From an uncultured Planctomycetales bacterium (GTDB taxonomy: Bacteria > Planctomycetota > UBA1135), in contig CAYFOM010000019.1 in the NCBI GenBank assembly GCA_964344765.1, positions 17,879-81,878 of the forward strand: 64,000 nt of DNA. Reading direction: 5' to 3'. Numbering within the stretch: the first letter of the stretch is position 1; every line of letters starts with the position of its first letter. The position numbers were made by a program, and so were the translations under genes. Positions 8,071-56,582 of the stretch are shown one piece after another. Under the pieces are notes generated by a model, which saw only the letters and a program-made list of their open reading frames with translations, had not been told where the DNA came from and ran no database searches.

Positions 8071-8099
8071 ACCCGGAAGACGGGTTCGACCACCAATGG

Positions 8100-10137: not shown

Positions 10138-10639
10138 CTCGCTACCCTCGCTGCCCAATGTCCCGCGCATAGGTATAGGTACCGACCGCCATCGCCTAGT
10201 TGCGGGACGTCCTTGCATTCTTGGCGGCGTCACCATCCATTGCCCGGTTGGCCCGCTTGGACATTCCGATGCCGACGCCGTGCTTCACGCAGTCTGCGAT
10301 GCGCTGCTCGGCGCTGCCGGTTTGGATGACATCGGAACTTTGTTTCCGGATAGCGATCCTCAATGGCAAGGTGCGAGTTCTGCAGCTTTACTCGCCGACG
10401 TCATAAGTCGCGTTCAAAATTCTGGATTACGGGCGGCTTCGTTGGACATCACCGTGCATTGCGATCGCCCCAAAATCGGTCCTCACCGGGCCGCCATCCG
10501 CAGTCAGTTGGCTTCGTGGCTGGAATTGCCGGTCGATCGCGTCAACGTCAAAGGCAAGACTTTGGAAGGCGGCGGTGGTGAGCAAGAATACGTAGACGTA
10601 ATTGCAGTCTGTTTGCTTACCAGCTCAGTGGAATCTTGA
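10130..10639 (+). CDS. ispF: 2-C-methyl-D-erythritol 2,4-cyclodiphosphate synthase
   Basis: RIGIGTDRHRL...GHSDADAVLHAVCDALLGA. There is an 8-nt overlap with ispD. Confidence 0.9.
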   Translation: MADSLPSLPNVPRIGIGTDRHRLVAGRPCILGGVTIHCPVGPLGHSDADAVLHAVCDALLGAAGLDDIGTLFPDSDPQWQGASSAALLADVISRVQNSGLRAASLDITVHCDRPKIGPHRAAIRSQLASWLELPVDRVNVKGKTLEGGGGEQEYVDVIAVCLLTSSVES

Positions 10640-14282: not shown

Positions 14283-14338
14283 GCCAAAAGAAGTTCATGA
14301 ACTTGATGAACCCGCAGTTATTCATCGCATTGCTACTT

Positions 14339-14353
14339 GCAAACGGCGTTCCA
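14339..14353 (-). promoter_or_regulatory. Sigma-54-like -24/-12 element upstream of paralogue A
   Basis: The minus strand reads TGGAAC-GCCGT-TTGCA, with GG-N10-GC spacing and one mismatch to TGGCAC-N5-TTGC. It lies 55 nt before ATG 14282. Confidence 0.4.
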
Positions 14354-14423
14354 TAGGCTGAGCGACGCAAATGCAAGGAAATTGAGCGTTGCCGCGCACA
14401 GCTGCGCGGATCCTTACCGGGCA

Positions 14424-14459
14424 TAAAAAAACTACCCCTCGCAACAATGCGAGGGGTAG
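14424..14459 (-). terminator. Rho-independent terminator between the two giant paralogues
   Basis: The minus strand reads CTACCCCTCGC-ATTGTT-GCGAGGGGTAG followed by T7/T8. Confidence 0.8.
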
Positions 14460-17400: not shown

Positions 17401-18133
17401 GAAGCTTATTGGTGGTCGGGAAGACGTCTTCGTTTGCAGTTCCTATTTCTCCGTCGGCATAGAGAATGTAAAGGTTCAGCAGGTTGAGGTTCAGATCGCG
17501 CGCATCAATAGCCTGGTTGAAGTGGAAGCGAATGAACGGGTCGGGATCGTTGTAAAAGTTCAAGCCTTCCGGCCACTCGATCGACGGCGAGGCAATCAGC
17601 TTCGGCGGCCCATCGACGTAGTCCAAGAACAGGCTGGAACCGGCACCAGTCGGCGTGCGGAAAGTGCGCGATACGCCTTGCGCCAGGGCACGACCTTTGG
17701 TGTCGCGCAGCACTTCGGCACCGAAGGCGGTCGAGCTTGGAATGGTCAGGCTGTAACTATTGCCACCGGGGACAAAGCCGCCGTTGGAGTTGTCGTTTGC
17801 AGTCGGACAAGTCGGGCGGAAGTAAATGGTGCGCGCGTCATCGGCGTCGACTTCAAACGAACCGGTCACGGGCTGCATGACGTCGTCCGAGGAGAAGATC
17901 ACCGTGCCGAAGTGCACCGTGTCCATATCCACCGGGTTGTTAAAAGTCAGCTGGATCAGCTTGTTCAGCTCCCAGGTGACTCCGTCGCCCATGTTGGTCG
18001 TTTCCAGCAAAAAGTTACCGGAGTTGTTCTGGCCACCGACGCTGGTGGCTGAACCACCACCGCAACCAGGCACCAGTAGCAGGGCACCGACCAGGCCGAC
18101 GGCACCAAGGCTTCTGAGATTATTGCTCACCAT
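14480..18133 (-). CDS. Giant Gly-rich surface lipoprotein, paralogue B
   Basis: About 1217 aa from ATG 18133 (MVSNNLRSLGAVGLVGALLLVPGCGGGS). The track start 18163 is a GTG only about 20 nt from the putative -12 element. It aligns along its whole length with paralogue A, roughly 55-65% identity by eye. Confidence 0.8.
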   Translation of the reverse strand: MVSNNLRSLGAVGLVGALLLVPGCGGGSATSVGGQNNSGNFLLETTNMGDGVTWELNKLIQLTFNNPVDMDTVHFGTVIFSSDDVMQPVTGSFEVDADDARTIYFRPTCPTANDNSNGGFVPGGNSYSLTIPSSTAFGAEVLRDTKGRALAQGVSRTFRTPTGAGSSLFLDYVDGPPKLIASPSIEWPEGLNFYNDPDPFIRFHFNQAIDARDLNLNLLNLYILYADGEIGTANEDVFPTTNKLPGTLRIEQNCVETGAVVLFEVAGLLPPNRKLQAIIKREFTDIAGQSNFADIRPAAHVTPTLAVALGDSSTDWSSKEVPDEFQEFFDNSTNVDLASALPLPGATMEDGFVQASFDFPGDFTTKDFVLDSGYSEVSTNSQNFFTDSGNTTHTILNGVINCRNFTVAAGSTLRARGANPLVIYASGDITIEGTINVSGNNAIWPTGLNSPQRPEGGAKGECGGGAGGTSSQDVFQETYRGSSGDGAWGFSGNGGQGGEGGFNQEKGNDGSYPKESVSNTAAGGGGGTFALTDNVAIYWTRWTEDDRMPSVDRNYSMDHRLNWNTATDPQLSGDRFVYTVAGGEAGIRGSSWGTTETDPLKIVGVFGMEDESPDFIYDPLTGEAQDGWKHGSGGTFNERFSTPWTDPVGDPNPFSNHSDHTTAVDTTNEYPRMLGHPTRGADGGLAGPSIFSNDADTGNDFWGVRLNNDGSVTAGELLVPWAGSGGGASGDMVIYYRMGTNGEEPLEDSFPEPNFPNGNIARYRKGAPGGGGGGQVLIMAIGDIIIGSAGQVLARGGDGMGGESIGWTYGQVSGSGGGSGGHIVLSTAGKLDLSAIDILDGNQNGDSNWTIADKDYYEIPITGAYFTEVFVAVGGRRGWAMSQVNNVDLGTGFKDDGNETYAVGRGGAGGNGVIQIHVPDPTTDILWPTASSSEMKDYMHNGDVINNDLDRDRLEEMLRIFAAPKPYALVPIFSSKSMFRSKWIDTGLAELRQPTTGTGVDYPDYNSPIISLAGINTGDGSIQTTSGMVTALTAITSGSSTEVDLFEFEARINNASNAFASVDHFLVQPNLLLGYGFQSNTSFTTTRTVVSASYNASTDVLTLLTDPSDGSLLVGAGATWAIQPRFFRMATSSLQDSLPDGTAVRIQFQGAEQSAAGSNEPGTPFPGSNTWTSDLSQLEGYRFIRYQVLFDIDANGTGLDLSTPRPLMSYFKVPFTW

Positions 18134-18184
18134 TAGTTTGTTACAGGCTTCACGCGGAAACACACGATTCCCACAAAGTAGACC

Positions 18185-18199
18185 GCAAATGCTGTACCA
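18185..18199 (-). promoter_or_regulatory. Sigma-54-like -24/-12 element upstream of paralogue B
   Basis: The minus strand reads TGGTAC-AGCAT-TTGCG with GG-N10-GC spacing, 50 nt before ATG 18133. Confidence 0.4.
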
Positions 18200-43062: not shown

Positions 43063-43175
43063 GCGCCGATTCGGGCTTAACTAGAAAGTCATAAGTCATT
43101 TCGCGCCGTTGTTTATGATTGATGGCCGTGCCGGTGGTTGCTCCCCAGACCTCCCAAACGCCCGGCCCCAATCCA

Positions 43176-45086
43176 ATGAATCTTGTCGCCCGATGTGCAC
43201 TCGCGCTGCTACTGACCGCCAGCGGTGCATGGAGCCAGCAGTATTACGTTTCCCCATTCGGTGACGACGCAACCGGCGATGGCAGCGCTGATTTGCCGTG
43301 GCGCTCCGTCACCAAAGCCATGCAGGCGGCAACGGTTGGCGATCAAATCAATGTAGGCGCCGGCAGTTATGACGCCTTCCATGGCGAGGCCTTCCCGTTG
43401 GTCGTCAAAGATGGAGTCAGCCTCGTCGGGCCGGGACCCGGACTAGGAACAGCAACGCTGAACGGCGCTAACGTTTTTGTGCCGCTGTTGGTGGTCACCG
43501 ATAACGTCGAGCCAACAGTGATTCAGTTCCTGCGCATGGATGGCGAGGTCAACATCATCGAGGTCTCGGGCAATCCCACCGATTTAACCGTCGCCGATTG
43601 TGTGTTCCTTGGCGGCCAAAAAGCGCTGAATCACGAAGCTGCCGGCGATGAAGCGGCGCTGCAATTCCTGCGCAATACCGCAGTGAATATGGATGTGGAC
43701 GGACTGACCTGGGTGGCAACCGGCGGCGCCAATTTGGAACACAGGCTGATCATTCGCGACAACCATTTCGTCGGCGCGTCCGAATCGGGGAATGGCGTGC
43801 GCATCGGTGCGGTTGGCGACGTCACCGTCAACCTGACCTTGCGCAACAATTACGTCGAAAACTTTTCGGTCGGCTACGACCTTGCCGCCACTGCTAGTGG
43901 ATCGACGGCTTCGCTCACAGGCGTAATTCGCGGCAATGAAGCCTACAAGTGCAATGGCGACGGCGTGAGCTGCACACTAACCGCCAGTGGATTGGGCCCG
44001 TCGGTTGCGGCTTTTGACGCGTCGTTTTTCCAAAACGCTTTCGCTCGCAACGACGGCGATGGCATGGAGGTTTATTCGTCGGCGCTAGGCCCGGATAACA
44101 GCACTGAATTTCATTCTTCACTGTGGGCGAATGAATTCCGCCGCAATGAGAAGAATGGCGTCTACATCCGCGAGTTTGGCGTAGCCGGCGGCGTTTGCGA
44201 TACCCAACCCGATTTTGGCGGTGGCCCGTGGGGTTCGTGGGGAGGCAATACTTTTGAGCGCAACGATGAGGAATACGTCACCGGCGCGCACTACGACATG
44301 CGCCTGGAATCGGCCACCAACGTTTTTGCGCAAAATAACTGGTGGGGTGAGCTGGATCTGTTGCTCGCCGATTCAATCATTGAGTCGCACATCTTTCACC
44401 AAGTCGACGACCCGCTCGCCGGTTTAGTGGACTTCAGCCGACGCCGTCCCGATCTGCTGACCTTCGCGCCGACGCAAAACCGCACCAAGGTCCACACCCA
44501 AGAATCCATCACCTTGCTCGCCGAAGCGGACACTGTATTTGTTGAGCGCGCAGGCTCGACTCCGCTTTCGGTGACCGTTGGAGAGGTGCTCTCCCCATTG
44601 GTGACCGTGGCTCCCAACGGTCAATCCCTGACTTTCAAAATGCCTGATCTCAGGGCAACCGGCGGCGGCACCCTACCCATCGAGATCACCGATCCCAACG
44701 GTCGCAACGGCTTGTCGTCGATCATTGTGCAAGGGGACGGCAATGGCGATGGCTTCTGTTTCGTCGCAACGGCCACTTACAACCATCCCGACGCACCCGA
44801 AGCTCTGACCCTGCGTCGCTGGCGCGATCATTACTTGGCCGATCATGCCGCCGGCCGCGCATTCATCCGCACTTATTACCACCACTCGCCGCGGCTCGCC
44901 GGCTGGATTGCCGAAAACCCGCGCTGGCGTGGCCTCAGCCGTGCCGCGCTGGCACCGGTGGTTTGGAGTGTGCGCATTTGGATGGATCACATCTGGTTCT
45001 ACTGGCTGATCCTGCCACTGCTCTTTGCGCGCAAACCGCTGCGCAAACTCATTCGCCTCAACCGGTCTCCCCAAACCAGCTCGTAG
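43176..45086 (+). CDS. Secreted DUF1565-type right-handed beta-helix protein with a CF(I/V)ATA-box C-terminal membrane anchor
   Basis: Signal MNLVARCALALLLTASGAWSQ. YYVSPFGDDATGDGSADLPWRSVTKAMQAATVGDQINVGAGSY is a DUF1565-like start. The C-terminus is GFCFVATATYNHPDAPEALTLRRWRDHYL...IWFYWLILPLLFA. Confidence 0.65.
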   Translation: MNLVARCALALLLTASGAWSQQYYVSPFGDDATGDGSADLPWRSVTKAMQAATVGDQINVGAGSYDAFHGEAFPLVVKDGVSLVGPGPGLGTATLNGANVFVPLLVVTDNVEPTVIQFLRMDGEVNIIEVSGNPTDLTVADCVFLGGQKALNHEAAGDEAALQFLRNTAVNMDVDGLTWVATGGANLEHRLIIRDNHFVGASESGNGVRIGAVGDVTVNLTLRNNYVENFSVGYDLAATASGSTASLTGVIRGNEAYKCNGDGVSCTLTASGLGPSVAAFDASFFQNAFARNDGDGMEVYSSALGPDNSTEFHSSLWANEFRRNEKNGVYIREFGVAGGVCDTQPDFGGGPWGSWGGNTFERNDEEYVTGAHYDMRLESATNVFAQNNWWGELDLLLADSIIESHIFHQVDDPLAGLVDFSRRRPDLLTFAPTQNRTKVHTQESITLLAEADTVFVERAGSTPLSVTVGEVLSPLVTVAPNGQSLTFKMPDLRATGGGTLPIEITDPNGRNGLSSIIVQGDGNGDGFCFVATATYNHPDAPEALTLRRWRDHYLADHAAGRAFIRTYYHHSPRLAGWIAENPRWRGLSRAALAPVVWSVRIWMDHIWFYWLILPLLFARKPLRKLIRLNRSPQTSS

Positions 45087-45091
45087 TCGTC

Positions 45092-46360
45092 ATGCCCCTA
45101 CTCATCACACTACTGGCTGCCGCCGCGCCTCTGCCTCAAGACCAACCTGCTCGGCGTCCGGCGAAGCCATTGATCCGATTGGAGCGAGTTCAGGAGCCGG
45201 AGCAAGCACCGCCCCCGGTCGAAGCGCTCGAAGAAGCCGATGCCGACGCCGACGCCGACCTTTGGACCGAGGAGTTCGAGCTGAAGTTTTCCGGCAAGTT
45301 GGAGAATGATTGGTCGTTTTATTCAGCCGACCGCGAGCTGGAAATGCAACACGGCGAGTTCGACAGCGGCACCGAGTTCCGCCGTGCGCGTTTTGGCATG
45401 AAGGGTGGATACGGGGAATGGCTGGCGTTTAAGGCCTCTTACGATCTACAAGGCGACGGTTCCGGATTCAGTGACTTGTATTCCGAATTCGAGGGCCTGC
45501 CCAACAACGCCAAGTTGAAGTTCGGACACTTCAAAGAACCGTTCAGCCTGGAAACGCTGACCAGTTCCACCAATCTGACCTTCATGGAGCGATCGCTGGT
45601 CAAAGGATTCGCGCCCAGCCGCAACGTCGGCATTCAGGTGCGGGATTCGGCGTTCAAAAAGAAGATGACCTGGGCAGCCGGCTTGTTCCGCGAAACCGAC
45701 GCCGGCGCTTTTGGGGTCGACGAATCCGGCCAGTTGGAATTTGCGCTGACCGGCCGCGTGACTTGGCTGCCGATCCGCGACAAGGATGAGCAACAGCTGC
45801 TCCACCTCGGATTGGCCGCGAGCTACCGCAATCCGGATGAAGCCGAAGCGCGTTTCCGCAGTCGTCCGGAATCGCACCTCGCCCCCTACTACTTGGACAC
45901 CAGTAAATTCCTCGCCGATGACGTCATCCTGATCGGCACCGAAGCCGCTTACGTCCACGGCCCGGCCACGCTGCAAGCCGAATATGCCCAGGCGATGGTC
46001 AGTCGCCCGGCCGGAGCCAGCGACGTCAGCTTTTCCAGCGGCTACATCCTGGGTTCGTGGATTTGGACCGGTGAATCGCGCGAGTACAACCGCAGCAAAG
46101 GCTATTTCGGCGGCGTCATTCCCGCCCACCCGTTCGGCGGCAATGCCGACGGCCCCGGCGCCTGGGAAACTGCGCTGCGTTATTCCTTCGCCAATTACAA
46201 CGATGACAACATTGGTGGTGGTGAAGGCCGCATGCTGATGGCTGCCCTGAATTGGCATATGACTGAACACTTGCGCATTTCGCTGAACTACGGCATTGCC
46301 GATTTGGTCACCCATGGCAACGCACACATTCTGCAGCTACGCTTCCACCTCGATTGGTAA
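45092..46360 (+). CDS. OprO/OprP-family (phosphate-selective type) porin
   Basis: EFRRARFGMKG...KLKFGHFKEPFSLETLTSSTNLTFMERS matches the Porin_O_P core. It ends ...LQLRFHLDW. It starts 5 nt after the previous stop. Confidence 0.7.
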   Translation: MPLLITLLAAAAPLPQDQPARRPAKPLIRLERVQEPEQAPPPVEALEEADADADADLWTEEFELKFSGKLENDWSFYSADRELEMQHGEFDSGTEFRRARFGMKGGYGEWLAFKASYDLQGDGSGFSDLYSEFEGLPNNAKLKFGHFKEPFSLETLTSSTNLTFMERSLVKGFAPSRNVGIQVRDSAFKKKMTWAAGLFRETDAGAFGVDESGQLEFALTGRVTWLPIRDKDEQQLLHLGLAASYRNPDEAEARFRSRPESHLAPYYLDTSKFLADDVILIGTEAAYVHGPATLQAEYAQAMVSRPAGASDVSFSSGYILGSWIWTGESREYNRSKGYFGGVIPAHPFGGNADGPGAWETALRYSFANYNDDNIGGGEGRMLMAALNWHMTEHLRISLNYGIADLVTHGNAHILQLRFHLDW

Positions 46361-47742
46361 TGAGTTTCACACCTAAGTGCGCCGCTATTCACGCCGCCGC
46401 TGACCCGGTCCGTGAAGCACTGCAGTCTCTGAGTCGGAATCCCGACGAAATCATCCGCCGCTTCAATCCGGCGTGGATGGCTTGGAACGGCCAACCGGAT
46501 TCGATCTTGAGCGTGGAAGTTTTGCGCGTGCATTACAAGCCGCAGCATCGCGCGCGCATGGTGATCTTATTGCGACTAAAACCACTCGAACCCGGCGGCG
46601 AACCGGTCAATACACGCGTCTATTTACAGTTTTATCCCGATGTGGAAACGGCGCTGCAACGGCAAGTTGCATATCGCCAGAAGCCGTCTAAACCGGCGGC
46701 CGGCCCACCGTCGTTCATCCTTCATGATCTGTGTGCGATTGGCTACACCTTGCCCAACGGCCCGCGCCTGCGCCGATTGGCAATGCTGATGGACGGCGAA
46801 TCCTTTCACAGTTTTTTGAGCAAAAAAGAACTGACCGACTACGCCGCCGACCCGGGTCATAAAAAGCTGCGCGTACTGCGCTACATTCCGCGCAAGCGAG
46901 CCTTACTTTATTTCAAACCGCGCACGCCGGGATTGGCCGCAGCTTATATCAAGCACTTCTGCGTCGATGATTATTTGATCGCCAAAGCGCTGCACAATCG
47001 AATGAATCGAGCGGCAGCCGATGGAGATTTTCAATTTCAACTTCCGCGCGTGTTAGCCCAGGGCAAATTGCGCCGCGTCATCATGCTGGAAGAGTTGCCG
47101 GGCGCGTTGCTCACGAATAGCTACGCCCAGCCCAATGCCGATGCCTGCCATGCAGTTGGCCGGGCGATTGCGTCGCTGCATCAGTCTTCGGTCAAACCCA
47201 AAATCAAGTGGTCTCACAAGCGGGAATTGGCTTGGTTCGACAAAGCTGCCGACGAGATCGTCACCGCGCTTCCCCACCTCAAAGACTCATTGCAGCGCAT
47301 TCATGATTGGCTGGAGGCGAACCGATCGAAATCTAAGGATTACCAACGGCGCCCGATCCATGCGAATTTGTTCGGCGATCAGATTTTGGTGGACGGGAAG
47401 AACGTCGGCATCGTGGATTGGGATGATCTTTCGAAGGGTGACCCCTGCTTTGATGTCGGCCGACTTTTGGCCCATCACTTATATGTCACTCGATGCGTGG
47501 AGCCTAAATCCAATTGGGACAAGACTTTCCAGCATTCCATCCTGAGTGGATACCAGGCAGAGGGCGGCGACAAATTACCGGCGGCGCGGCTGCTTTGGCA
47601 TATAGTTTGTGCGTTACCTCTGCGGGCCAAGATTTCGGCGTTGCGCCAGCTGCCGGAGCAGTGGCCCGCCCACATTGACCGAGCATGTCAATTGGCCGAG
47701 CATCTGATCGCCAACGGCATGCCGGGCCAGGACGATGACTGA
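46360..47742 (+). CDS. Aminoglycoside-phosphotransferase-fold kinase-like protein (atypical catalytic loop)
   Basis: IMLEELPG and PIHANLFGDQILVDGKNVGIVDWDDLSKGDPCFDVGRLLAH show the APH/choline-kinase fold layout. The Brenner motif reads H-A-N instead of H-x-D. ATG 46360 shares one base with the porin TAA. Confidence 0.6.
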   Translation: MSFTPKCAAIHAAADPVREALQSLSRNPDEIIRRFNPAWMAWNGQPDSILSVEVLRVHYKPQHRARMVILLRLKPLEPGGEPVNTRVYLQFYPDVETALQRQVAYRQKPSKPAAGPPSFILHDLCAIGYTLPNGPRLRRLAMLMDGESFHSFLSKKELTDYAADPGHKKLRVLRYIPRKRALLYFKPRTPGLAAAYIKHFCVDDYLIAKALHNRMNRAAADGDFQFQLPRVLAQGKLRRVIMLEELPGALLTNSYAQPNADACHAVGRAIASLHQSSVKPKIKWSHKRELAWFDKAADEIVTALPHLKDSLQRIHDWLEANRSKSKDYQRRPIHANLFGDQILVDGKNVGIVDWDDLSKGDPCFDVGRLLAHHLYVTRCVEPKSNWDKTFQHSILSGYQAEGGDKLPAARLLWHIVCALPLRAKISALRQLPEQWPAHIDRACQLAEHLIANGMPGQDDD

Positions 47743-49456
47743 ACTCACGGCAAGGGAGCAGAAGAAGCGCATTCATGACCGCTGGCGGCGGATTCTGAAA
47801 GCGTTTTTACCCTTTGCCAAGCGTCATCGTCCGCAATTTTTGACCAGCATTCTGTTTGGCCTTGGAGTGGTCGGTTTGCGCTTGGCCCTACCGTGGCCGA
47901 TTCGCAGTCTGCTCGGCCCGTGGCTATCCGCCGATCCGGCCGCCACCGAACCGATGCCCACCGCCGAGTGGTATAGCGATCCATGGGTCGTCGGCGTTCT
48001 GTTGATGGCCATCGTTGTTGGTCTAGGCTTATTTGAATTCCGCCAACGCGTGCACGTGGCCCGCTTTGCCATTGCCTGGGTGCGCGACATCCGCGCCGAC
48101 GCATTTTTTGCCGCCAACCGCATCGATCCACGCGCTCTGCAAACCACATCGGGTGACCTTGTAGCACGACTGGTCGGCGACACCGCGCGCCTGAAAGCCG
48201 GGCTCAAAGGCACGATGACGCACGTCGTGACCAATGGAATTTTCTTCCTCGGGGTCGGCATTCTGATGCTGTGGATCAGCCCACTTCTGGGCGCGATCTT
48301 TTTGGTTGCCGGCGTATTGGTTTTCTTCATCACCTTGCGCGGCGCCGAGAAGCTTTATTTGCAATATTTGCGCTTGCGGAAGAAAGAAGGCAAGCTGGCG
48401 ACGCGCATCGAGCAGGCGGTTTACGCCGGCGATCAGAGCGCTTCGTTCACAAAGGTCAATTACTCCAGCGGTAAACACGAGACCAATGTGGTGCGCATTC
48501 AAGGGCGCACAACTTTGACCTCGCATGCAGTCTTAGGTGTGGCAACGTTGATTGCGCTGGTCATTGGTTTCCAACAACTCGAAGCCAAAGCCATTGACCC
48601 CGGCCATATGTTGATTGCGTTCATTTATATGATCGAATTGCATCGGCCGCTGGTGCGATTGTGCCGCCAAGGCACGCGCATTGGCAAAATGATGGCTTGC
48701 GGCAATCGTTTGGAACGCATTTTGCGCGCCGCCGACAACCCCAAGTACGCGCTTAGTGAGCTACCCGCACTCAGCAAGAAAGTTCGCCTCAAAGCCGCCC
48801 GACTTGAGGACCACGGACGGATTCGGCTGCAGGCGGAGGACGTGCGCTTTTATCGGCGCAAATGCAGCGTGATCATCGGCGCGGCGGGTGCCGGTAAAAC
48901 CACTGCGCTGGACGTTCTTTCCGGCCAGCTTGAGTTGAGTGAAGGCAAGGTGTTGTGGGACAAGCTCAATCTAAGCAAGATGTCGACGCTCGAGATGGCG
49001 AAGCGCATCGCTTACCTCACGGATCAGCCGCAATGGCCGCAACAAAGCTTGCGTAGCTTGCTTGACTTGAAGGACGACCAGCAAGCCAAGTCCGAGGTAT
49101 TTGAACTTTGCGGCCTGCAAAACTGGTTCGCCCAACTATCAAATGGCTTGGACAGCCCGGTTTCGGCGAGTGAATTATCCACTCAACAACGCCACGGATT
49201 AGCACTGGCCAAGCTCCTTCATCAAAACGCCGATTTGGTTTTGTGGGACGACCCCTTCCGTCATTGGTCTGAACCGCAGGTAGTTGCTGCATTAAAGCAC
49301 CTGCGCAACGAATCGCGAGCGATTGTCCTGACCGCCGGCACCGCCCCCACTTTGGAAGGCGTATCCGACCTTCGCCTGCTTCAAATAGAAGCCGGCCTTC
49401 TAACCGAAGCCACCGCCGCCACACCTACTCAACCCGACTCAGCACCTCCTGCTTAG
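47735..49456 (+). CDS. ABC exporter-type fused TMD-NBD protein with degenerate ATPase motifs
   Basis: The N-terminal ~300 aa are multi-helix. Walker A is GAAGAGKTT, the signature-like block is LSTQQRHGLALAKLL, and Walker B is DLVLWDDP (D where the catalytic E is expected). I could find no H-loop His. 8-nt overlap with the kinase-like gene. Confidence 0.7.
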   Translation: MTELTAREQKKRIHDRWRRILKAFLPFAKRHRPQFLTSILFGLGVVGLRLALPWPIRSLLGPWLSADPAATEPMPTAEWYSDPWVVGVLLMAIVVGLGLFEFRQRVHVARFAIAWVRDIRADAFFAANRIDPRALQTTSGDLVARLVGDTARLKAGLKGTMTHVVTNGIFFLGVGILMLWISPLLGAIFLVAGVLVFFITLRGAEKLYLQYLRLRKKEGKLATRIEQAVYAGDQSASFTKVNYSSGKHETNVVRIQGRTTLTSHAVLGVATLIALVIGFQQLEAKAIDPGHMLIAFIYMIELHRPLVRLCRQGTRIGKMMACGNRLERILRAADNPKYALSELPALSKKVRLKAARLEDHGRIRLQAEDVRFYRRKCSVIIGAAGAGKTTALDVLSGQLELSEGKVLWDKLNLSKMSTLEMAKRIAYLTDQPQWPQQSLRSLLDLKDDQQAKSEVFELCGLQNWFAQLSNGLDSPVSASELSTQQRHGLALAKLLHQNADLVLWDDPFRHWSEPQVVAALKHLRNESRAIVLTAGTAPTLEGVSDLRLLQIEAGLLTEATAATPTQPDSAPPA

Positions 49457-49458
49457 CC

Positions 49459-51339
49459 ATGCGCCCTGTTGTCTGGATCGTCTTAGTCCTATACACCGTG
49501 ACCGCCGCGGTTTGGTTTTGGGTGTTTCCGCTATCGAAGAACTTTAGCGCGGTAGACATCACCACCGAGAGCTTGCTGTTCATCGCAGCAATGGTTTCGT
49601 ATGGAATCGTGTTGCGCCACCGCGTCACCATTTTGGAAATCGGTTGGCCGATTTACGGTTATGGCGTGCTGTTCGACTTGCTCGACGAATTCACTCGCGA
49701 CCGAGACTTCTTTAACGATCCGCTTGAAGACGTCTTAAATTCGTTCGGCTTGATTCTGGTTGCCTATGGCTTCTACACGGCATTCCGTGATCGCACTGCC
49801 GAACGCGATGCTCAAATCCAGGCCAAGAGCGCACTAGAAACCGAACGTGGCCGCCTCGACACGATTTTGGGTTCCATCGGCGAGGGCGTTATCGCAACAT
49901 CGGCCGATCAGAAGATCCTGTTTTTGAATTCATCTGCGGCGCAAATTTGTGGTTCGGAACCCGAGGGTTGGGTTGGCCGCCGGATTCAAGAGTTCTTCCC
50001 TTTCGATGAGGTTGGCCGCGCAATGCTGCAAACCGAACTGAAACAGTTCTTCACCGCCCAGCACGAGGCCAGTGCAACCGCAACTCAGTCCTTCCAAATT
50101 GAGCTGAATCAGCGCAAGCGATCCCTGGAGGTAGTTTCCGGCCCCTTACCCAGCAGCGGCGGGGAAGTCGGCAATGCGCTGTATGTATTCCGCGACATCA
50201 CCAGCCGCATGCGCCAGGAACAGGAACTGCTAGATGCCAGCAAAGCCGAATCGATGAAGCTACTCGCAGGTGGAGTCGCTCACGACTTCAACAATGTGCT
50301 GGCTGCCATTCAAAATTGGGTGGCTTTGGGCAAGCTGCATGGCGACAACAAAAAAGACGGCCCCAACGTGATGGAGAAGATCGAATCTGCGTGCAAGCGC
50401 GGCAAGCGATTGGGCACTCAACTCATGTCGCTGGCCAAAGGTGGAGATCCGATCAAAGCACCGGTTGCAATGGAGCAGCTGGTTCGCGACGAAGCCGAGT
50501 TTGCCTTACGCGGATCCGGCGTTCGCGTCTATTTTGAGTTTGAAGACGGCCTGTGGAGCGGCGACGTCGATGCCGGCCAAATCAGCCAGGTCGTCCATAA
50601 CTTGCTGATTAACGCGCGCCAATCCATGCCCGATGGTGGCAAGGTGTGGGTGGAAATGCACAATCACACCGTCACCGAAGACACTGCCGAGGTGGCCGCT
50701 GGGAAGTACATCCAATTGATTGTGCGCGACAACGGCCCGGGAATCCCACTTGAGTTACGCGCGGACATTTTTGAGCCTTATTACACCACCAAAAAGACTG
50801 GATCGGGTTTGGGCTTGGCGGTGAGCAAAACCATCGTCACTCGCCATGGAGGAACCATTCAGGTACGGAGTCCGCAAGGGGGAGGCACTCACTTTGAATT
50901 GCTGTTGCCGGTTAGTTCGGTGGCCGCTGCCAGCGCCCCGGAGAGGCCGCGAACCAAGCCGTTAGGCGGACGCTTATTGCTGGTTGACGATAGCTTCGAT
51001 ATTCGCGAACCGCTTGCCATCAGCTTGCGTGAATGCGGCTATGAAGTTGACGTTTGCGACAGCGGACGACGCGCGGTTGAGCACTACCGCCAGTTCCTTG
51101 CCCTAGGCACCAAAATCGATTTGGTCATCATGGATTTGACCATGCCGGGCGACATCGGCGGCAAAGAGGCGATGGCGCGCATTTTGGCCATTGATCCGAA
51201 CGCCAAAGGCGTCATTGCAAGTGGCTATCACCAAGATCCGGTGATGGCCCAGTTCCGCGAGCATGGATTTCAAGGGGTCATTACCAAGCCATTCCGCTTG
51301 GATTCCCTTATCGACCTGATTGAACGTACCACCCGTTAG
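49459..51339 (+). CDS. Hybrid sensor histidine kinase/response regulator (membrane, PAS, HisKA, HATPase, REC)
   Basis: N-terminal TM helices and a PAS-like region (LDTILGSIGEGVIATSADQKILFLN). H-box GVAHDFNNVL, G-boxes DNGPGI and GSGLGLAV, and a C-terminal REC (LLLVDDS...DLVIMDLTMPG...K). Confidence 0.85.
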   Translation: MRPVVWIVLVLYTVTAAVWFWVFPLSKNFSAVDITTESLLFIAAMVSYGIVLRHRVTILEIGWPIYGYGVLFDLLDEFTRDRDFFNDPLEDVLNSFGLILVAYGFYTAFRDRTAERDAQIQAKSALETERGRLDTILGSIGEGVIATSADQKILFLNSSAAQICGSEPEGWVGRRIQEFFPFDEVGRAMLQTELKQFFTAQHEASATATQSFQIELNQRKRSLEVVSGPLPSSGGEVGNALYVFRDITSRMRQEQELLDASKAESMKLLAGGVAHDFNNVLAAIQNWVALGKLHGDNKKDGPNVMEKIESACKRGKRLGTQLMSLAKGGDPIKAPVAMEQLVRDEAEFALRGSGVRVYFEFEDGLWSGDVDAGQISQVVHNLLINARQSMPDGGKVWVEMHNHTVTEDTAEVAAGKYIQLIVRDNGPGIPLELRADIFEPYYTTKKTGSGLGLAVSKTIVTRHGGTIQVRSPQGGGTHFELLLPVSSVAAASAPERPRTKPLGGRLLLVDDSFDIREPLAISLRECGYEVDVCDSGRRAVEHYRQFLALGTKIDLVIMDLTMPGDIGGKEAMARILAIDPNAKGVIASGYHQDPVMAQFREHGFQGVITKPFRLDSLIDLIERTTR

Positions 51340-51341
51340 GA

Positions 51342-52751
51342 ATGACCTCTCCCTCCGATCCTGGCGCACGCATTCTGCTGGTAGAAGACAATGATCTACT
51401 CGCCGAGGCTTTGTCGTTTCAATTAAGCCACGAAGGCTATCCGTGCAGCATCGCGCCTTCGTTGCGTTCCGCGCGCAGCAAACTGCAAGACCAACCCTTC
51501 GATTTGGTTTTGCTCGACGTCAATTTGCCCGATGGCAACGGCTTTGAATTACTGAGGGAAATCCAACAGCGCTTCGAGGGCGAATTGCCGGTGGTATTGC
51601 TGACCTCATTCGCCAAGGTGGAAGATGCTGTGAGGGCTCTGAAGGAAGGTGCGGCGGATTACATAGTTAAGCCCGACAATCCGCAGGAGGCGATTGCAGT
51701 TCTCAAACGCGTTTTGACCGAATCGGAACGCAATCGGTTACTGAATCTGGCACGAAAACGAGAACAGCAAGGCAAGCCACGCAGCAAAATCCTCGGCGAC
51801 TCGGCACCGATGCGCCGAGTGAAGGATGAAATTCGTCAAATTGCTTCGCTGAACTTGCAGGGCAATGGAACCCGTCCAACTGTTTTGATCCTCGGCGAAA
51901 CCGGCTCCGGCAAAGGCTTGGCGGCTCGTGGAATTCATCACAAGAGCCAGGGCAGTCATGATCGTCCGTTTATCCACGTCGACTGTTCCTCGCTGCCCGA
52001 TACCTTGATCGAATCCGAGCTATTCGGTCATGAAAAAGGCGCATTCACTCAAGCCGACCGCACTCGCACCGGACTGATTGAAGCTGCTGAAGACGGCACC
52101 ATCTTCCTGGATGAGATAGGTGAAGTCTCGCTACCGATGCAGGCCAAGTTGTTGTCGGTGCTCGATCGCCGCATGGTTCGCCGCGTAGGCTCCGACTTGG
52201 AGCGGCCGGTGCGCGCCAGCTTCGTCGCAGCCACGAACCGCGACTTGGAGCAAATGGTGAAACAAGGCGAATTCCGCGCCGACCTGTTTTACCGCCTCAA
52301 CGTCATCACCTTGAATCTGCCGCCGCTGCGCGACCGGGGCGACGACATCCTCCTGCTCGCCCAGCAATTCGCGACGAATGTCGCCCAGCGTTACGCGCTG
52401 GAGCCGCTGATGTTCTCCGAGCGCGCTCAGCGTGCATTGTTGGAATACCGCTGGCCAGGAAACGTGCGTGAACTCAAGCACGTGGTGGAACGAGCGGTGC
52501 TGCTCAGTCCTGGCCAGGACTTTCCGATTCAGCTGCTGGACTCTGCCGATTCATCGGCAATAGAAGGCAAAGATAAGCCTGCTGACTTTGACCTTAAATC
52601 GCACGAAAAGGCGCTGATTCTCGCTGCACTCGAGGCTGAATCCTTCAACATCAGCAGGGCAGCTAAGAAGTTGGGAATTAGCCGGGGCTCGCTGCGCGGC
52701 AAGCTGGTCAAACACGGAATTCAGGTGGACGGCGGCCAGCATGGTGGCTGA
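51342..52751 (+). CDS. Sigma-54-dependent response regulator (NtrC/Fis family: REC, AAA+, HTH)
   Basis: ILLVEDNDLL...LVLLDVNLPDGNG (REC), GETGSGKGLAARGIH (Walker A), ESELFGHEKGAFT (GAFTGA-type sigma-54 contact loop), and C-terminal NISRAAKKLGISRGSLRGKL (Fis-type HTH). Confidence 0.9.
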   Translation: MTSPSDPGARILLVEDNDLLAEALSFQLSHEGYPCSIAPSLRSARSKLQDQPFDLVLLDVNLPDGNGFELLREIQQRFEGELPVVLLTSFAKVEDAVRALKEGAADYIVKPDNPQEAIAVLKRVLTESERNRLLNLARKREQQGKPRSKILGDSAPMRRVKDEIRQIASLNLQGNGTRPTVLILGETGSGKGLAARGIHHKSQGSHDRPFIHVDCSSLPDTLIESELFGHEKGAFTQADRTRTGLIEAAEDGTIFLDEIGEVSLPMQAKLLSVLDRRMVRRVGSDLERPVRASFVAATNRDLEQMVKQGEFRADLFYRLNVITLNLPPLRDRGDDILLLAQQFATNVAQRYALEPLMFSERAQRALLEYRWPGNVRELKHVVERAVLLSPGQDFPIQLLDSADSSAIEGKDKPADFDLKSHEKALILAALEAESFNISRAAKKLGISRGSLRGKLVKHGIQVDGGQHGG

Positions 52752-52778
52752 ATTCAGCCACTTCGGCTAAATTTAGCC
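52745..52778. promoter_or_regulatory. Two perfect palindromes: candidate enhancer (UAS) for the sigma-54 activator
   Basis: TGGCTGAATTCAGCCA (52745-52760, 16 bp, overlapping the activator stop codon) and GGCTAAATTTAGCC (52765-52778, 14 bp). They share the half-site GGCT(G/A)AA, their centres are 19 bp apart, and they lie about 95-115 bp upstream of the -24 element. Confidence 0.55.
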
Positions 52779-52863
52779 AGCAATTTTCCCACCCCTCCAT
52801 ATATAGAACTACCATATCCCCCTACTCCAGGGCGATTTACGAATTCGTGAATTTAGGCGGTAT

Positions 52864-52880
52864 TTGGCATGAATGTTGCC
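52864..52880 (+). promoter_or_regulatory. Sigma-54 (-24/-12) promoter
   Basis: TTGGCATGAATGTTGCC compared with the consensus YTGGCACGrNNNTTGCW. GG (52866-67) and GC (52878-79) have the canonical spacing. It is immediately upstream of the nucleotidyltransferase gene. Confidence 0.65.
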
Positions 52881-52899
52881 TGTAAAGAACTGGCGCCCC

Positions 52900-53751
52900 A
52901 TGCGCAAAGCTATGAGCTTTACTCCCCCCCTCTCCCAATCAGCGCTGGATTCCCCTGTCCCTAAGCAGGCCATTATTTTGGCTGCGGGGACAGGTTCCAG
53001 GCTGGGGCCGTCAGCGTTGGAGAAGCCCAAGTGTTTGTTGCCTTTGGCGCATAAAACTCTGCTCGAGATTCAAATCGAGACCTATCGCAGCCTGGGTGTA
53101 CAGGAAATCTGCGTAGTTGTCGGCTACCGCAAGGAACTGGTCGAACCGGTAGCTCAGCGCTACCCCAATATCACGATCATCGAAAACCCGATTTACGACG
53201 CATCCAACAGCTTGTATTCGCTGTGGCTGACTCGTGATTGGATCCGCGGCGCTTTTGCAGTCTCCAACGCCGATGTGGTTGCCGACCCCGAGATCTTCCG
53301 CCGCATTTTGAGTGCGCCGATGACCTCGCTAGGTGTGGATACCGGCACCGGCTACCACGAAGAGCACATGAAGGTGGAGATCAAAAACGATCGGGTGCGC
53401 TCGATCAGCAAGGGTTTGCCGCCACGCCGCACTCACGGGGAAAACGTCGGCATTTTGTCCATCGCTCAAAACGATGCACGCCCCTTCCTCGAAACCATCG
53501 ATGAAATCGTGCGCCACGGCGGAGAAAACCTGTGGGTTCCCGCCGTCCTCCATCGAATGGTTACCAGCAACCTGATTCAGGTTGCCGCACAAGACATCAC
53601 CGGCCTGCCATGGATCGAAATTGATTTCTGTGGCGACCTGAAAGATGCGCGCAAGGACATCTGGCCGGCCATTGCCCCACAAACTCAGTCTTTACAGGCG
53701 TACCCCACGCCTACTACCCCGCCCCACTTCGCTTCCTCCAAAGCGTCTTAA
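52900..53751 (+). CDS. MobA/LicC-like nucleotidyltransferase (NTP_transf_3 type)
   Basis: AIILAAGTGSRLGPSALEKPKCLLPL is the nucleotidyltransferase G-loop. The track start 52873 lies inside the promoter, so ATG 52900 or 52912 is more plausible. Confidence 0.7.
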   Translation: MRKAMSFTPPLSQSALDSPVPKQAIILAAGTGSRLGPSALEKPKCLLPLAHKTLLEIQIETYRSLGVQEICVVVGYRKELVEPVAQRYPNITIIENPIYDASNSLYSLWLTRDWIRGAFAVSNADVVADPEIFRRILSAPMTSLGVDTGTGYHEEHMKVEIKNDRVRSISKGLPPRRTHGENVGILSIAQNDARPFLETIDEIVRHGGENLWVPAVLHRMVTSNLIQVAAQDITGLPWIEIDFCGDLKDARKDIWPAIAPQTQSLQAYPTPTTPPHFASSKAS

Positions 53752-53763
53752 TCATCTCCCCTC

Positions 53764-54861
53764 ATGACTCAGCCACTCCGAGTTCTGTTTACCGGTTACG
53801 CACCGGTTCACTTCGTTTGCTTCATGCCGCTGTACAAACAATTGGTACAGGAACCCGGCGTTGAACTTCACGTCGCCGGCGGTTTGCGCGAAAAGCGCGA
53901 GGACGGCAACCACCGGTTCCATCTTCACGAGATGTATCGCCCGTTTGGCGTGCCCACTGACCGCATGCTAACCATGGACGAAATCGCCAACCGCGACTTC
54001 GACATCTTGTTCGGCGCCAACACCAAGATGTTGATGCCGCGTAGCGTCAAAAAGAAGATTCAGATCTTCCACGGCGTGTCTTTCCGCAACCGCGCGATTC
54101 GCAAAGAGAACCTTGGTGCCGATTATTTCTTCATGGCCGGCAATTACATGCGCCGCCGCTTCGAAGAAGCCGATTTGCTCGAACCGAACGACCCGCGCGC
54201 CATCAACGTCGGCTTCTTGAAGACCGATGGTTTGGTCGACGGCTCGCTGGACCGCCAATCGCTGCTCGCCAGCTACGGTTTCGACGGCTCGCGTCCGGTG
54301 TTGCTGTACGCACCGACTGGTCAGAAGCACTGCTCGATGGAAACCATGGGTATGGATTTCATCCGCGCCGTTCAAGCAACCAATAGGTACGACTTACTGG
54401 TCAAGCTGCACGATCATCCACACGGCTGCACCGAGAACTGGGCTGCCAAGATCGCCGAACTCGAAAACCAACACACCCGTTTGGTGGAATCGTTCGACGT
54501 CACTCCGTTGCTGTTCCTCAGCGACCTGCTGATTACGGATGCCTCCTCCGTTTCCAGCGAATTCTCACTACTGGACCGCCCGATGGTCTTCCTCGATGTG
54601 CCGAAGCTGCTGAAGAAAGCCGCCAAGAAGGATGGTTCGATGATGGACCTCGCCACTTGGGGCCGCAATGGCGGCGAAATCGTGCCCGATCCGGAAGCTG
54701 CCATCGCCGCCATTGATCACGCTCTGGCGAACCCGGCGGCAAAGTCCGAAATTCGTCGCGAATCGGCGCAGGACCTGTTCTTCAACCCCGGTGCATCGGT
54801 CGACTTCGCGATGGACTGGCTGCGGGACAATTTCATCAATCAGCCGGCGCTCGTTTCCTGA
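53764..54861 (+). CDS. CDP-glycerol/CDP-alcohol glycerophosphotransferase (TagB/TagF family)
   Basis: PVLLYAPTGQK... and LLITDASSVSSEFSLLDRPMVFLD match the TagF-family C-terminal catalytic blocks (LYAPT, ITDYSS-type). Confidence 0.7.
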   Translation: MTQPLRVLFTGYAPVHFVCFMPLYKQLVQEPGVELHVAGGLREKREDGNHRFHLHEMYRPFGVPTDRMLTMDEIANRDFDILFGANTKMLMPRSVKKKIQIFHGVSFRNRAIRKENLGADYFFMAGNYMRRRFEEADLLEPNDPRAINVGFLKTDGLVDGSLDRQSLLASYGFDGSRPVLLYAPTGQKHCSMETMGMDFIRAVQATNRYDLLVKLHDHPHGCTENWAAKIAELENQHTRLVESFDVTPLLFLSDLLITDASSVSSEFSLLDRPMVFLDVPKLLKKAAKKDGSMMDLATWGRNGGEIVPDPEAAIAAIDHALANPAAKSEIRRESAQDLFFNPGASVDFAMDWLRDNFINQPALVS

Positions 54862-54882: not shown

Positions 54883-56514
54883 ATGCCTTCCCTACTTCAA
54901 ATCATCCTCCCCGCCGCCGTCGCCGCAATGTTGGTCGACGGCGCAATTGCGCAGCAAACCACTCGCATTAGCGAATCGACGGCCGGCGTTCAGTCCGACC
55001 GCGCAAGCAACCGCCCCGATATCAACGATAACGCGGCATGGGTTTGCTACGAATCGCAATCCACCAATGTCGTTCCCGACGACACCAACTTCGTGCAGGA
55101 TGTTTTCTTAGTCGATTTGGCGACGGGGACGAATGAACGCATCAGTGTGGCGACCGGTGGCATTCAAGCGAATGGCGAAAGCAAGCGCCCGGTGATTTCC
55201 GGCGACGGCAACTTCGTCACCTTTACCAGCATTGCCAGCAACTTCGATCCGCTGGATTTCAACCTGACCTACGACATTTTTGTCCGCGACATCACGTTGG
55301 GAACCACCACGTTGGTCAGCCGCAGCTTGTCGACCTTGTCCGGCAATGGATTGTCGACGCGCCCATCGATTAGCACTGATGGCAGTTACATCGCCTTCCG
55401 CAGTTTGGCCAGTGATTTGGTGATTGGCGACACCAACATGATCGACGACATCTTCGTTTGGACCTGCGCCACCGGTGCTTTGGAGCGGGTTAGCGTGGGT
55501 GCAGGCGGAGTCGAAGGCAACGCCACCAGCGACCGCCCGAGCATTTCCGGCGACGGCAACTTGGTTGCGTTTTGGAGTGACGCCACCAATCTGGTCGCCA
55601 GCGACCTCAACCTGATGCGCGATGTCTTCGTGCATGACCGCACCACCGGCGTGACCAGCTTGGTCAGCGTCAGCAGCGCCGGCGTACAGGGCAACGGACC
55701 TTCTACACGCCCTGACTTCTCCAATGATGGTCGCTACGTGGTCTTCGCAAGCTCGGCATCGAACTTGGTCACCGGCGACGTCAACGGCGTCAAAGACATC
55801 TTTGTACGCGACCTGCAATTGGGCACCACTGAACTGGTGTCGAAGAGTACCAGCGGCGAGATTGCCGACGACCTTTGCAGTGTGCCGCGCATCTCTGGCG
55901 ACGGCCGCTACGTCACCTTTCGCAGTATCGCCGGCAACTTGGTCGCAGGTGATAGCAACAATGCCGAGGACGTCTTCTTGCACGACCGCCAAACCGGCGT
56001 GACCACGATCCTCAGCCGTTCGACTGCCGGCAACCAAGGCAATGGTCACTCCAGCCGCCCGGCGATTAGCGCCGACGGCCAAGTCACTGTCTTCCAGAGC
56101 TTCGCCACCAACATGATTGCCGGCGACACCAACCTCGAGGAAGACGTCTTCCTCCACGAAGGAACGGGCTGGAGCGGTCCTCCGGTATTCGACTCCATCC
56201 TGCTGACCGGTCCTGCCACCGCACTTTCCGGCACGCAGGCGGTCTTTAGCTGGGAAGGCGCACCGGCCAACTCCACCTACTGGCTGGTTTACAGCTTCAC
56301 GTTGAATGGCATGACGGTTATGGGTCATCCGTTTGAAATTGGTGCGCCGTACACCGTGCTCGACAATGGCGTCTGCACGGCAACGGGCACCGGAAGCTAT
56401 ACCTCTATCCCGCTGCCGCCAGCAGCGATCGGGCTGACCGTGTACCTGGAGTTGGGTGCGCTGGATGCCGGCGCGTTGAGTGATTCCAACGCGATTTCAT
56501 TGACGATCCTTTAG
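54883..56514 (+). CDS. Secreted PD40/TolB-like beta-propeller repeat protein with a distinct C-terminal beta-rich module
   Basis: Signal-like MPSLLQIILPAAVAAMLVDGAIAQ. At least eight ~48-aa repeats of the form RPxISGDGxxVAFxSxAxNLVxGDxNxxxDVFVxDxxTGxTxLVS. Confidence 0.7.
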   Translation: MPSLLQIILPAAVAAMLVDGAIAQQTTRISESTAGVQSDRASNRPDINDNAAWVCYESQSTNVVPDDTNFVQDVFLVDLATGTNERISVATGGIQANGESKRPVISGDGNFVTFTSIASNFDPLDFNLTYDIFVRDITLGTTTLVSRSLSTLSGNGLSTRPSISTDGSYIAFRSLASDLVIGDTNMIDDIFVWTCATGALERVSVGAGGVEGNATSDRPSISGDGNLVAFWSDATNLVASDLNLMRDVFVHDRTTGVTSLVSVSSAGVQGNGPSTRPDFSNDGRYVVFASSASNLVTGDVNGVKDIFVRDLQLGTTELVSKSTSGEIADDLCSVPRISGDGRYVTFRSIAGNLVAGDSNNAEDVFLHDRQTGVTTILSRSTAGNQGNGHSSRPAISADGQVTVFQSFATNMIAGDTNLEEDVFLHEGTGWSGPPVFDSILLTGPATALSGTQAVFSWEGAPANSTYWLVYSFTLNGMTVMGHPFEIGAPYTVLDNGVCTATGTGSYTSIPLPPAAIGLTVYLELGALDAGALSDSNAISLTIL

Positions 56515-56543: not shown

Positions 56544-56582
56544 TCAGCCTGCTAAGCTTCGGCTTCAGCAGGCTGATTTTTT
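56544..56582 (+). terminator. Rho-independent terminator
   Basis: TCAGCCTGCT (56544-56553) pairs with AGCAGGCTGA (56567-56576), followed by T6. Confidence 0.8.

Follow-up and report, generated by a model that had tools for sequence, protein, structure and literature searches.

This analysis concerns a candidate sigma-54 enhancer-promoter region in a 64,000-nucleotide stretch of contig CAYFOM010000019.1 (positions 17,879 to 81,878, forward strand) from an uncultured Planctomycetales bacterium; the whole stretch is referred to below as the window. The region lies largely within a 160-bp intergenic gap, which is preceded by the genes of a hybrid sensor histidine kinase and an enhancer-binding protein (EBP), 2 bp apart, and followed by three genes for envelope-type proteins (Table 1). 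A preliminary description, made from the sequence alone, had read the upstream open reading frame (ORF) as an NtrC-type activator preceded by its sensor, and the domain content agrees. The activator combines a receiver domain (REC; Pfam Response_reg, 3.9e-25), a sigma-54 AAA+ domain (Sigma54_activat, PF00158, 3.6e-59) with the Walker A motif GETGSGK at residue 185, and a C-terminal Fis-type helix-turn-helix (HTH) domain (HTH_8, PF02954, 2.8e-10; residues 422–457) with the sequence LGISRGSLRGKLVKHGI. Its phospho-acceptor, D59, is invariant in the orthologue alignment and aligns with D55 of E. coli AtoC. The PAS hybrid kinase has AtoS-like proteins as its top NCBIfam matches, all under the cut-off, and its gene stands immediately 5′ of the activator gene in the syntenic loci as well.

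Two palindromes and a promoter-like element had been noted downstream of the activator, and all of their coordinates proved correct against the sequence. The first palindrome is longer than described: TGGCTGAATTCAGCCA (52745–52760) extends by one base on either side to a perfect 18-bp palindrome, GTGGCTGAATTCAGCCAC (52744–52761), which contains the TGA stop codon (52749–52751) of the activator ORF (51342–52751). The second follows at a centre-to-centre distance of 19 bp. The string GGCT-N6-AGCC occurs three times in the window against 1.25 expected, and two of these occurrences are the adjacent sites 1 and 2. Further downstream, TTGGCATGAATGTTGCC (52864–52880) holds GG-N10-GC at the canonical spacing, with the core TGGCAT-N5-TTGC at 52865–52879. 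We took as a sigma-54 promoter a GG and a GC exactly 10 nt apart within TGGCAC-N5-TTGCW, which is the arrangement found at 52865–52880. Transcription is predicted to start at ∼52890–52892, the −12 C at 52879 giving a position of ∼52891.

We regard the comparative data as the decisive evidence for this predicted element. A protein search with the activator, followed by retrieval of the contigs that carry its matches, yielded syntenic loci in eight further lineages (L085, L086, L088, L090–L093 and L095); the activators of the nine lineages, including the window, are 50–78% identical. The window belongs to a metagenome contig (PRJEB17505), and the nearest relatives that bear a name are labelled Planctomycetes. 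The locus is carried by the assemblies GCA_021776925.1, GCA_964454065.1, GCA_003696625.1, GCA_014382465.1 and GCA_964643675.1, by the 1.08-Mb JGI contig Ga0675948_0000014 and by the PRJEB17505 bin with contig k127_23512. These loci share a gene block encoding a porin, an APH protein, an ATP-binding cassette (ABC) exporter, the kinase, the activator, a nucleotidyltransferase, a TagF-like protein and a PD40 protein. Two GGCY-N6-RGCC dyads lie just 3′ of the activator gene in all nine lineages, the first as GGCT-N6-RGCC and the second as GGCY-N6-RGCC. Their start-to-start spacing is 18 bp, except for 19 bp in the window and 20 bp in L091. Counted from where the second dyad starts, the promoter begins at 100–105 bp in every lineage. 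An upstream activating sequence (UAS) is expected to have dyad-symmetric activator sites ∼80–150 bp upstream of the promoter, and site centres at ∼−138 and ∼−119 agree with this at 9/9 loci. The −24/−12 elements of these loci read TGGCATGAATATTGC, CGGCCCGCTTTTTGC, TGGCACGGAAATTGC, TGGCACGCGGGTTGC, TGGTCCGAGATTTGC, CGGCACGGCCTTTGC, TGGCATCAGGATTGC and TGGCACCGGAGTTGC, and the consensus of the nine orthologous promoters is TGGCAYG-N4-TTGCA.

The alignment of sites and promoter covers eight loci. Its only invariant columns are GGCT/GCC, GGC/AGCC, GG and TTGC, and the spacer between dyads and promoter is unalignable, with zero conserved columns. The site-to-promoter distance spans 5 bp, whereas the stop-to-site distance spans 25 bp (−5 to +20). 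A loose promoter pattern has a background frequency of 6e-5 per position, and the chance of eight loci matching it in the same 6-nt window is ∼3e-28. The background set was drawn from matches of the activator in a genome collection (Methylophilaceae and others, ≤49% identity); these carry purT or other genes on the 3′ side of the activator gene and lack the sites, and were accordingly taken as paralogues. The 1.35 Mb of unrelated activator loci contain 177 single GGCY-N6-RGCC sites and not one dyad pair spaced 17–21 bp. Activator, sites and promoter stay together in all nine lineages, also in those with rearranged flanking genes. The enhancer-promoter module first proposed for the window is thus conserved in sequence, order and spacing, and the predicted dyads and promoter together leave the clear phylogenetic footprint of an enhancer with a sigma-54 promoter. 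We consider it likely that the region works as a sigma-54 enhancer-promoter and that the adjacent activator serves it.

Table 1. Features of the predicted sigma-54 module and its neighbourhood (window coordinates)
Feature	Position	Strand	Description and basis
Upstream cluster genes	43119..49456	+	DUF1565 beta-helix surface protein (CFI-box-CTERM), phosphate-type porin O/P, APH-family kinase, MsbA-like ABC exporter; Pfam, NCBIfam, synteny
Hybrid sensor histidine kinase	49459..51339	+	Hydrophobic N-terminal segments, PAS, H-box (GGVAHDFNN), HATPase_c, C-terminal receiver; Pfam, sequence, hydropathy
NtrC-type enhancer-binding protein, 469 residues	51342..52751	+	REC, sigma-54 AAA+, AAA_lid_14, HTH_8; Pfam, motifs, alignment
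Enhancer site 1 (predicted)	52744..52761		Perfect 18-bp palindrome GTGGCTGAATTCAGCCAC; core GGCT-N6-AGCC 52746–52759; centre ∼−138 from predicted start
Enhancer site 2 (predicted)	52765..52778		GGCTAAATTTAGCC; centre ∼−119 from predicted start
AT-enriched, non-conserved spacer	52797..52856		Includes AT tract CCATATATAGAACTACCATAT (52797–52817)
Sigma-54 −24/−12 promoter (predicted)	52865..52880	+	TGGCATGAATGTTGCC; GG 52866–67, GC 52878–79; GG-N10-GC
First target gene, NTP_transf_3-type nucleotidyl (probably cytidylyl) transferase, 279 residues	52912..53751	+	Pfam, NCBIfam; start revised
Second target gene, TagF/TarF-like CDP-alcohol (glycerol/ribitol-phosphate) phosphotransferase	53764..54861	+	Pfam Glyphos_transf; weak TarL/TarF/TarB matches
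Third target gene, exported PD40/TolB-like beta-propeller	54883..56514	+	Signal peptide; Pfam, N-terminus, conserved position
Intrinsic terminator closing the three-gene operon	56544..56582	+	TCAGCCTGCT-13 nt-AGCAGGCTGA, 10-bp stem, then TTTTTT

That the adjacent activator is the likely cognate regulator was also part of the preliminary description, and the DNA-binding domain bears on this directly. Among the best 120 homologues, the HTH signature LGxxRG[AS]LRx[KR][LM] is confined to the nine syntenic orthologues, and 80 other activator loci lack both the signature and dyad pairs. All activators found with the signature have such sites after their genes. Metagenome contigs were additionally scanned with a DNA pattern for the whole module. 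This gave 35 matches, ∼27 of which were discarded as chance matches in GC-rich DNA; the scan retrieved two lineages already known from synteny. It also found a second activator group, with modules at 925–1059(−) in L096, 1157–1291(−) in L097 and 12425–12558 in L122. Here the activator gene ends just 5′ of GGCTGAGATCAGCC-N5-GGCTGTCATCAGCC and GGCACGCAGGTTGC, a tandem of GGCT-N6-AGCC dyads followed by a ∼88-bp gap and a sigma-54 promoter. The second activator is 37–45% identical, has a canonical GAFTGA loop and carries the same HTH signature, within the HTH sequence LGMGRGALRYRLEKHGI. Its module precedes one or two small, unrelated proteins that start with MSQRAVESILGRLITDEEF. The HTH type and the site type are therefore associated in both directions, which supports the adjacent activator as the predicted cognate binder of the dyads.

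Adjacency is no proof of binding, and an EBP encoded elsewhere might occupy the dyads of a real sigma-54 module while the adjacent activator has other targets. Near-perfect modules do exist without an adjacent activator gene, at 972–1105 in L112 (with TGGCTAAATTTAGCCA twice) and at 1477–1609 in L117, identical to 9803–9935 in L129 (with TGGCTGGATACAGCCA paired to TGGCTGTATCCAGCC). They stand upstream of signal-peptide proteins. With such modules, action in trans is possible, and they suggest that the motif is used in trans in other phyla. On the other hand, activator, sites and promoter remain adjacent in all nine lineages even where the flanks are rearranged, and the co-occurrence of signature and site type is found in two independent activator groups, both features being absent from the 80 other loci. 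Moreover, neither the 64-kb window nor the ∼20-kb syntenic loci contain a further dyad pair that could be an alternative target of the activator; for the same reason there is no sign of autoregulation or of further local targets. We therefore consider a distant regulator unlikely.

The points that weigh against a sigma-54 module worked by this activator concern its contact loop, the rpoN gene and the spacer. The sigma-54 contact loop (residues 233–238) reads GAFTQA instead of GAFTGA, and does so invariably in the activators of all nine lineages, with F and T intact and position 5 altered. The nearest paralogue families have GAFTSA, GAFTNA, GAFTTA or GAFTDA, and GAFTGA occurs in only 6 of the 120 best homologues. 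Among natural variants at position 5, D is functional (FlgR, GAFTDA), and E, A, H, N and S are putatively functional; Q is missing from that list (Francke et al. 2011, PMC3162934). We found no mention of GAFTQA or GAFTSA in the papers searched and no experimental precedent for Q at this position. EBP-like proteins with a defective loop work with sigma-70 (Francke et al., PMC3162934). The GAFTQA protein might accordingly be unable to engage sigma-54, as are TyrR, DhaR and HupR, and might act as a sigma-70-type activator or repressor beside a fortuitous −24/−12 match. A second EBP-like gene on the same contig outside the window (L132, 15482–16468(−); 328 residues, Sigma54_activat and AAA_lid, no REC) lacks the loop altogether; its product is probably sigma-54-independent, and it says nothing on sigma-54. 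Such an account is very unlikely for the window activator. The critical F and T are intact, and FlgR is functional with D in place of G; all nine lineages keep GG and TTGC without variation and at a constant position, which is not expected by chance or from a sigma-70 mechanism; and no sigma-70-like promoter was detected in 52000–53500. The strict conservation of the −24/−12 element beside these proteins speaks for a functional GAFTQA loop, and position 5 of the GAFTGA loop may tolerate Q.

No rpoN gene is present in the window or in the further upstream sequence of the same contig, and a tblastn search with E. coli RpoN gave no match in the window, the extra contig sequence or the retrieved loci. 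At the level of the phylum, R. baltica, a model planctomycete, carries rpoN (RB6491; PMC2754498). Counts of the promoter consensus inside the window alone are weak statistics. With two mismatches allowed, 43 matches were found against 41 expected, and a search at chance level is uninformative within the window. Exact TGGCAY-N5-TTGC occurs once against 0.6 expected on both strands; this lone match is on the right strand and inside the 160-bp intergenic gap.

An AT-rich tract between the palindromes and the promoter had been proposed as a bending site, and this proposal stands only in part. The AT enrichment was recovered: all eight loci examined exceed the expected AT content at ∼−90 to −35, by +15 to +28 percentage points, and show no such excess at −110 to −95. 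The consensus of integration host factor (IHF), WATCAANNNNTTR, was found with at most one mismatch in only one of the eight loci, and not in the window. An IHF site between UAS and promoter is optional and is found mainly in Proteobacteria. The composition of the spacer would possibly fit a flexible or intrinsically bent loop, and a specific bending-protein site is unsupported. The spacer also holds a third palindrome, ATTTACGAATTCGTGAAT (52835–52852, 11 of 12 complementary, ∼−56 to −39), which is lineage-specific, with no conservation among the other lineages.

The palindromes could also be read at the level of RNA, as a hairpin or intrinsic terminator of the kinase-activator operon and not as protein sites. 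The RNA of 52735–52800 folds as a long hairpin (−22.6 kcal/mol, z = −4.25) with UUUU a few bases after it, and site 1 overlaps the stop codon in three lineages. However, a good fold is expected of any tandem palindrome, and the overlap is limited to those three lineages. The sites hold their distance to the promoter and not to the stop codon; their outer GGC/GCC is kept as sequence while the inner symmetry is often broken, as in GGCTCGTTCAAGCC; and the module is present in L112 and L117 where no gene ends nearby. The other lineages have no conserved T-run behind the sites, which argues against a terminator, and a terminator scan found nothing at the palindromes. The terminator reading was rejected on the absence of the T-run, the promoter-fixed distance and the negative scan, and a role of the palindromes in RNA is highly improbable. 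An Rfam scan of 52600–53100 returned nothing near threshold. Finally, palindromes and a consensus-like string might have met between two genes by chance alone. The near-chance counts within the window might speak for this, but it is a negligible prospect, being refuted by the nine-lineage conservation, the value of ∼3e-28 at eight loci and the empty 1.35 Mb background.

The predicted promoter has a consequence for the start of the first target gene. Its in-frame ATG codons are at 52873, within the promoter, and at 52900 and 52912. The preliminary description had inferred from this that the real start is one of the latter two, which holds, and the comparative data point to 52912. Each of the five closest lineages has an in-frame ATG 15–23 nt 3′ of the predicted transcription start, and the N-termini of the nucleotidyltransferase align in the closest lineages as MSFTPPLSQ, MTLPPPLPS, MPTPSPFPS and MQPNSPLPS. 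On these two grounds ATG 52912 is the preferred candidate, with 52900 as a possible second. The 5′ leader of this gene encodes a Pro/Ser-rich peptide in every lineage (52900–52965 in the window). The peptide is an in-frame N-terminal extension (MSFTPPLSQ...) in the window, L085, L086, L088 and L090. In L092 (1677–1727), L093 (11568–11645) and L095 (about 8080–8157) it is a separate upstream ORF of 16–25 codons (MHPLP..., MRPSP...), the stop codon of which overlaps the main start as ATGA.

If the region is a sigma-54 enhancer-promoter served by the adjacent activator, it would work as follows. Upon a signal, the membrane-anchored PAS hybrid kinase (49459–51339) would phosphorylate D59 of the activator. 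Activator dimers would then occupy the two abutting TGGCT-N6-AGCCA dyads at ∼−138 and ∼−119 and form an AAA+ ring, and the ∼95-bp AT-enriched spacer would loop. The GAFTQA loops of the ring would touch the sigma-54 holoenzyme in the closed complex at TGGCAT-N5-TTGC (52865–52879), and ATP hydrolysis would open the promoter. The resulting transcript would begin at ∼52891, span the genes of the nucleotidyltransferase, the TagF-like phosphotransferase and the PD40 propeller, and end at 56544–56582.

The target product is probably a CDP-activated polyol- or alcohol-phosphate decoration of the envelope. The best sub-threshold match of the nucleotidyltransferase is an inositol-phosphate cytidylyltransferase, and the TagF-like gene keeps its position in all syntenic loci. 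The presence of an APH-family kinase, an NTP_transf_3 enzyme and a TagF-like phosphotransferase suggests a three-step route, in which an alcohol would be converted to alcohol-phosphate, the alcohol-phosphate to CDP-alcohol, and the alcohol-phosphate finally moved onto an envelope polymer. The ABC exporter, the porin, the PD40 propeller and the surface beta-helix protein would be partners of this route. Sigma-54 regulons have been proposed to centre on the cell exterior (PMC3162934), and the envelope-type targets fit that view.

The locus had been called an unusually readable regulon. Readable it is, but its layout is not unusual, as E. coli atoSC-atoDAEB has nearly the same geometry: kinase, activator, UAS, promoter and target operon follow in the same order on a single strand. 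A 4-bp overlap joins the genes of kinase and activator in E. coli, against a 2-bp gap in the window. In both systems the UAS lies a few bases from the activator stop, the E. coli element starting 12 bp after that of atoC. The ato UAS is a 40-bp element with two 20-bp inverted sites (PMC3118216). Both systems thus have two abutting dyad-related sites, 2 × 20 bp in ato and 2 × 18 bp here, followed by an AT-rich spacer of ∼100 bp to TGGCAC-N5-TTGC. The ato promoter, TGGCACtccccTTGCT, begins ∼103 bp past the start of the second site, compared to 100–105 bp here. The window activator is 40% identical to AtoC over its full length. In contrast, the sites differ in sequence (GCTATGCAGAAATTTGCACA in ato, TGGCT-N6-AGCCA here), as does the contact loop (GAFTGA in AtoC), and the window kinase, unlike that of ato, is a hybrid with a C-terminal receiver. 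The ato targets serve short-chain fatty acid catabolism in an enteric host, whereas those of the planctomycete-like host are envelope-type enzymes. The score against the AtoC model (NCBIfam NF008469) is 369.5 bits, far from the cut-off of 714, so that the activator is not an AtoC orthologue.

In the NtrB/NtrC-glnAp2 system, which is the paradigm of enhancer-dependent transcription, a REC-AAA+-HTH_8 activator bound at two strong sites, near −140 and −110 to −120, acts by looping on a −24/−12 promoter. The window resembles it in activator architecture, site positions and promoter type, and looping is here a proposal. The NtrC sites, TGCACC-N5-GGTGCA, are ∼32 bp apart, whereas the sites here are 18 bp apart and abutting; the NCBIfam ntrC score is 317.8 against a cut-off of 558.6. 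The second-best NCBIfam match is PrsR (TIGR02915), orthology with which was rejected (319.3 bits against 502.6, with a different motif); the activator is below every NCBIfam equivalog cut-off. The PrsK/PrsR PEP-CTERM system pairs an NtrC-type regulator and a sigma-54 promoter with cell-exterior functions, and the PrsR regulon was defined purely by comparative genomics, from a UAS motif and a −24/−12 motif (Haft et al. 2006, PMC1569441). Its motif 1, which has TTTACA within it and a distance of ∼63 nt to the promoter, is unlike the window sites, and none of the PEP-CTERM and EpsH genes of that system is present here. FlgR of Campylobacter and Helicobacter offers a functional natural variant at position 5 of the loop, with D there and Q here. 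FlgR lacks, or has no need of, a DNA-binding domain or UAS.

Several features of the neighbourhood deserve brief mention. The terminator at 56544–56582 sets the operon apart from genes for an S26 signal peptidase, an ABC ATPase (ABC_tran and BCA_ABC_TP_C, possibly LptB-like) and ETF; the gene context 3′ of the PD40 gene differs between lineages. At the head of the upstream cluster, the DUF1565 protein (43119–45086) has a CFI-box-CTERM domain (NF041770, 7e-22), a putative sorting signal; its gene is on the opposite strand and 3′ of the PD40 gene in L091 and L093. The closest relative, L085 (78% identity), has its nucleotidyltransferase gene annotated in two parts, of 120 and 143 residues (11521–12404), which reflects either a frameshift or pseudogene or else an assembly error. 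Elsewhere in the window, two large ORFs of similar size without a Pfam match, 10617–14282(−) (1221 residues) and 14480–18163(−) (1227 residues), each have a sigma-54-like element on their 5′ side, at 14338–14353(−) and 18185–18199(−) (TGGAACGCCGTTTGCA and TGGTACAGCATTTGC), and are separated by a strong hairpin and T-run terminator near 14418–14452.

The results can be joined into a wider reading, which we hold tentatively and with slightly more doubt than belief. Tandem TGGCT-N6-AGCCA dyads with a spacing of 18 bp would be recognised by the HTH signature LGxxRG[AS]LRx[KR][LM], and the distance from where the second dyad starts to the promoter would be constrained to ∼100 bp. At least two activator orthogroups would share this previously undescribed pair of activator and DNA site, as would unlinked promoters elsewhere among bacteria. 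Within the planctomycete-like group the pair would work by way of a natural GAFTQA loop and switch on a lineage-specific polyol- or alcohol-phosphate decoration of the envelope by the kinase, the cytidylyltransferase and the TagF-like enzyme.

The module is a textbook-style sigma-54 control region, an uncharacterised member of a familiar type, and it adds nothing mechanistically new to the enhancer paradigm. The new points are minor ones, namely the GAFTQA loop, a tightly spaced motif with a predicted role in recognition, and an envelope cluster conserved in this planctomycete group. To our knowledge, gene regulation in the planctomycete-like group is almost unstudied, and the analysis provides for such a lineage a comparatively validated module consisting of sensor, activator, operator, promoter, three-gene target and terminator. 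The predicted activator-binding motif can be used for finding members of the regulon. Additionally, the module points to an uncharacterised, conserved nine-gene envelope cluster that comprises the DUF1565 protein, the porin, the APH kinase, the ABC exporter, the two-component system, the nucleotidyltransferase, the TagF-like protein and the PD40 protein.

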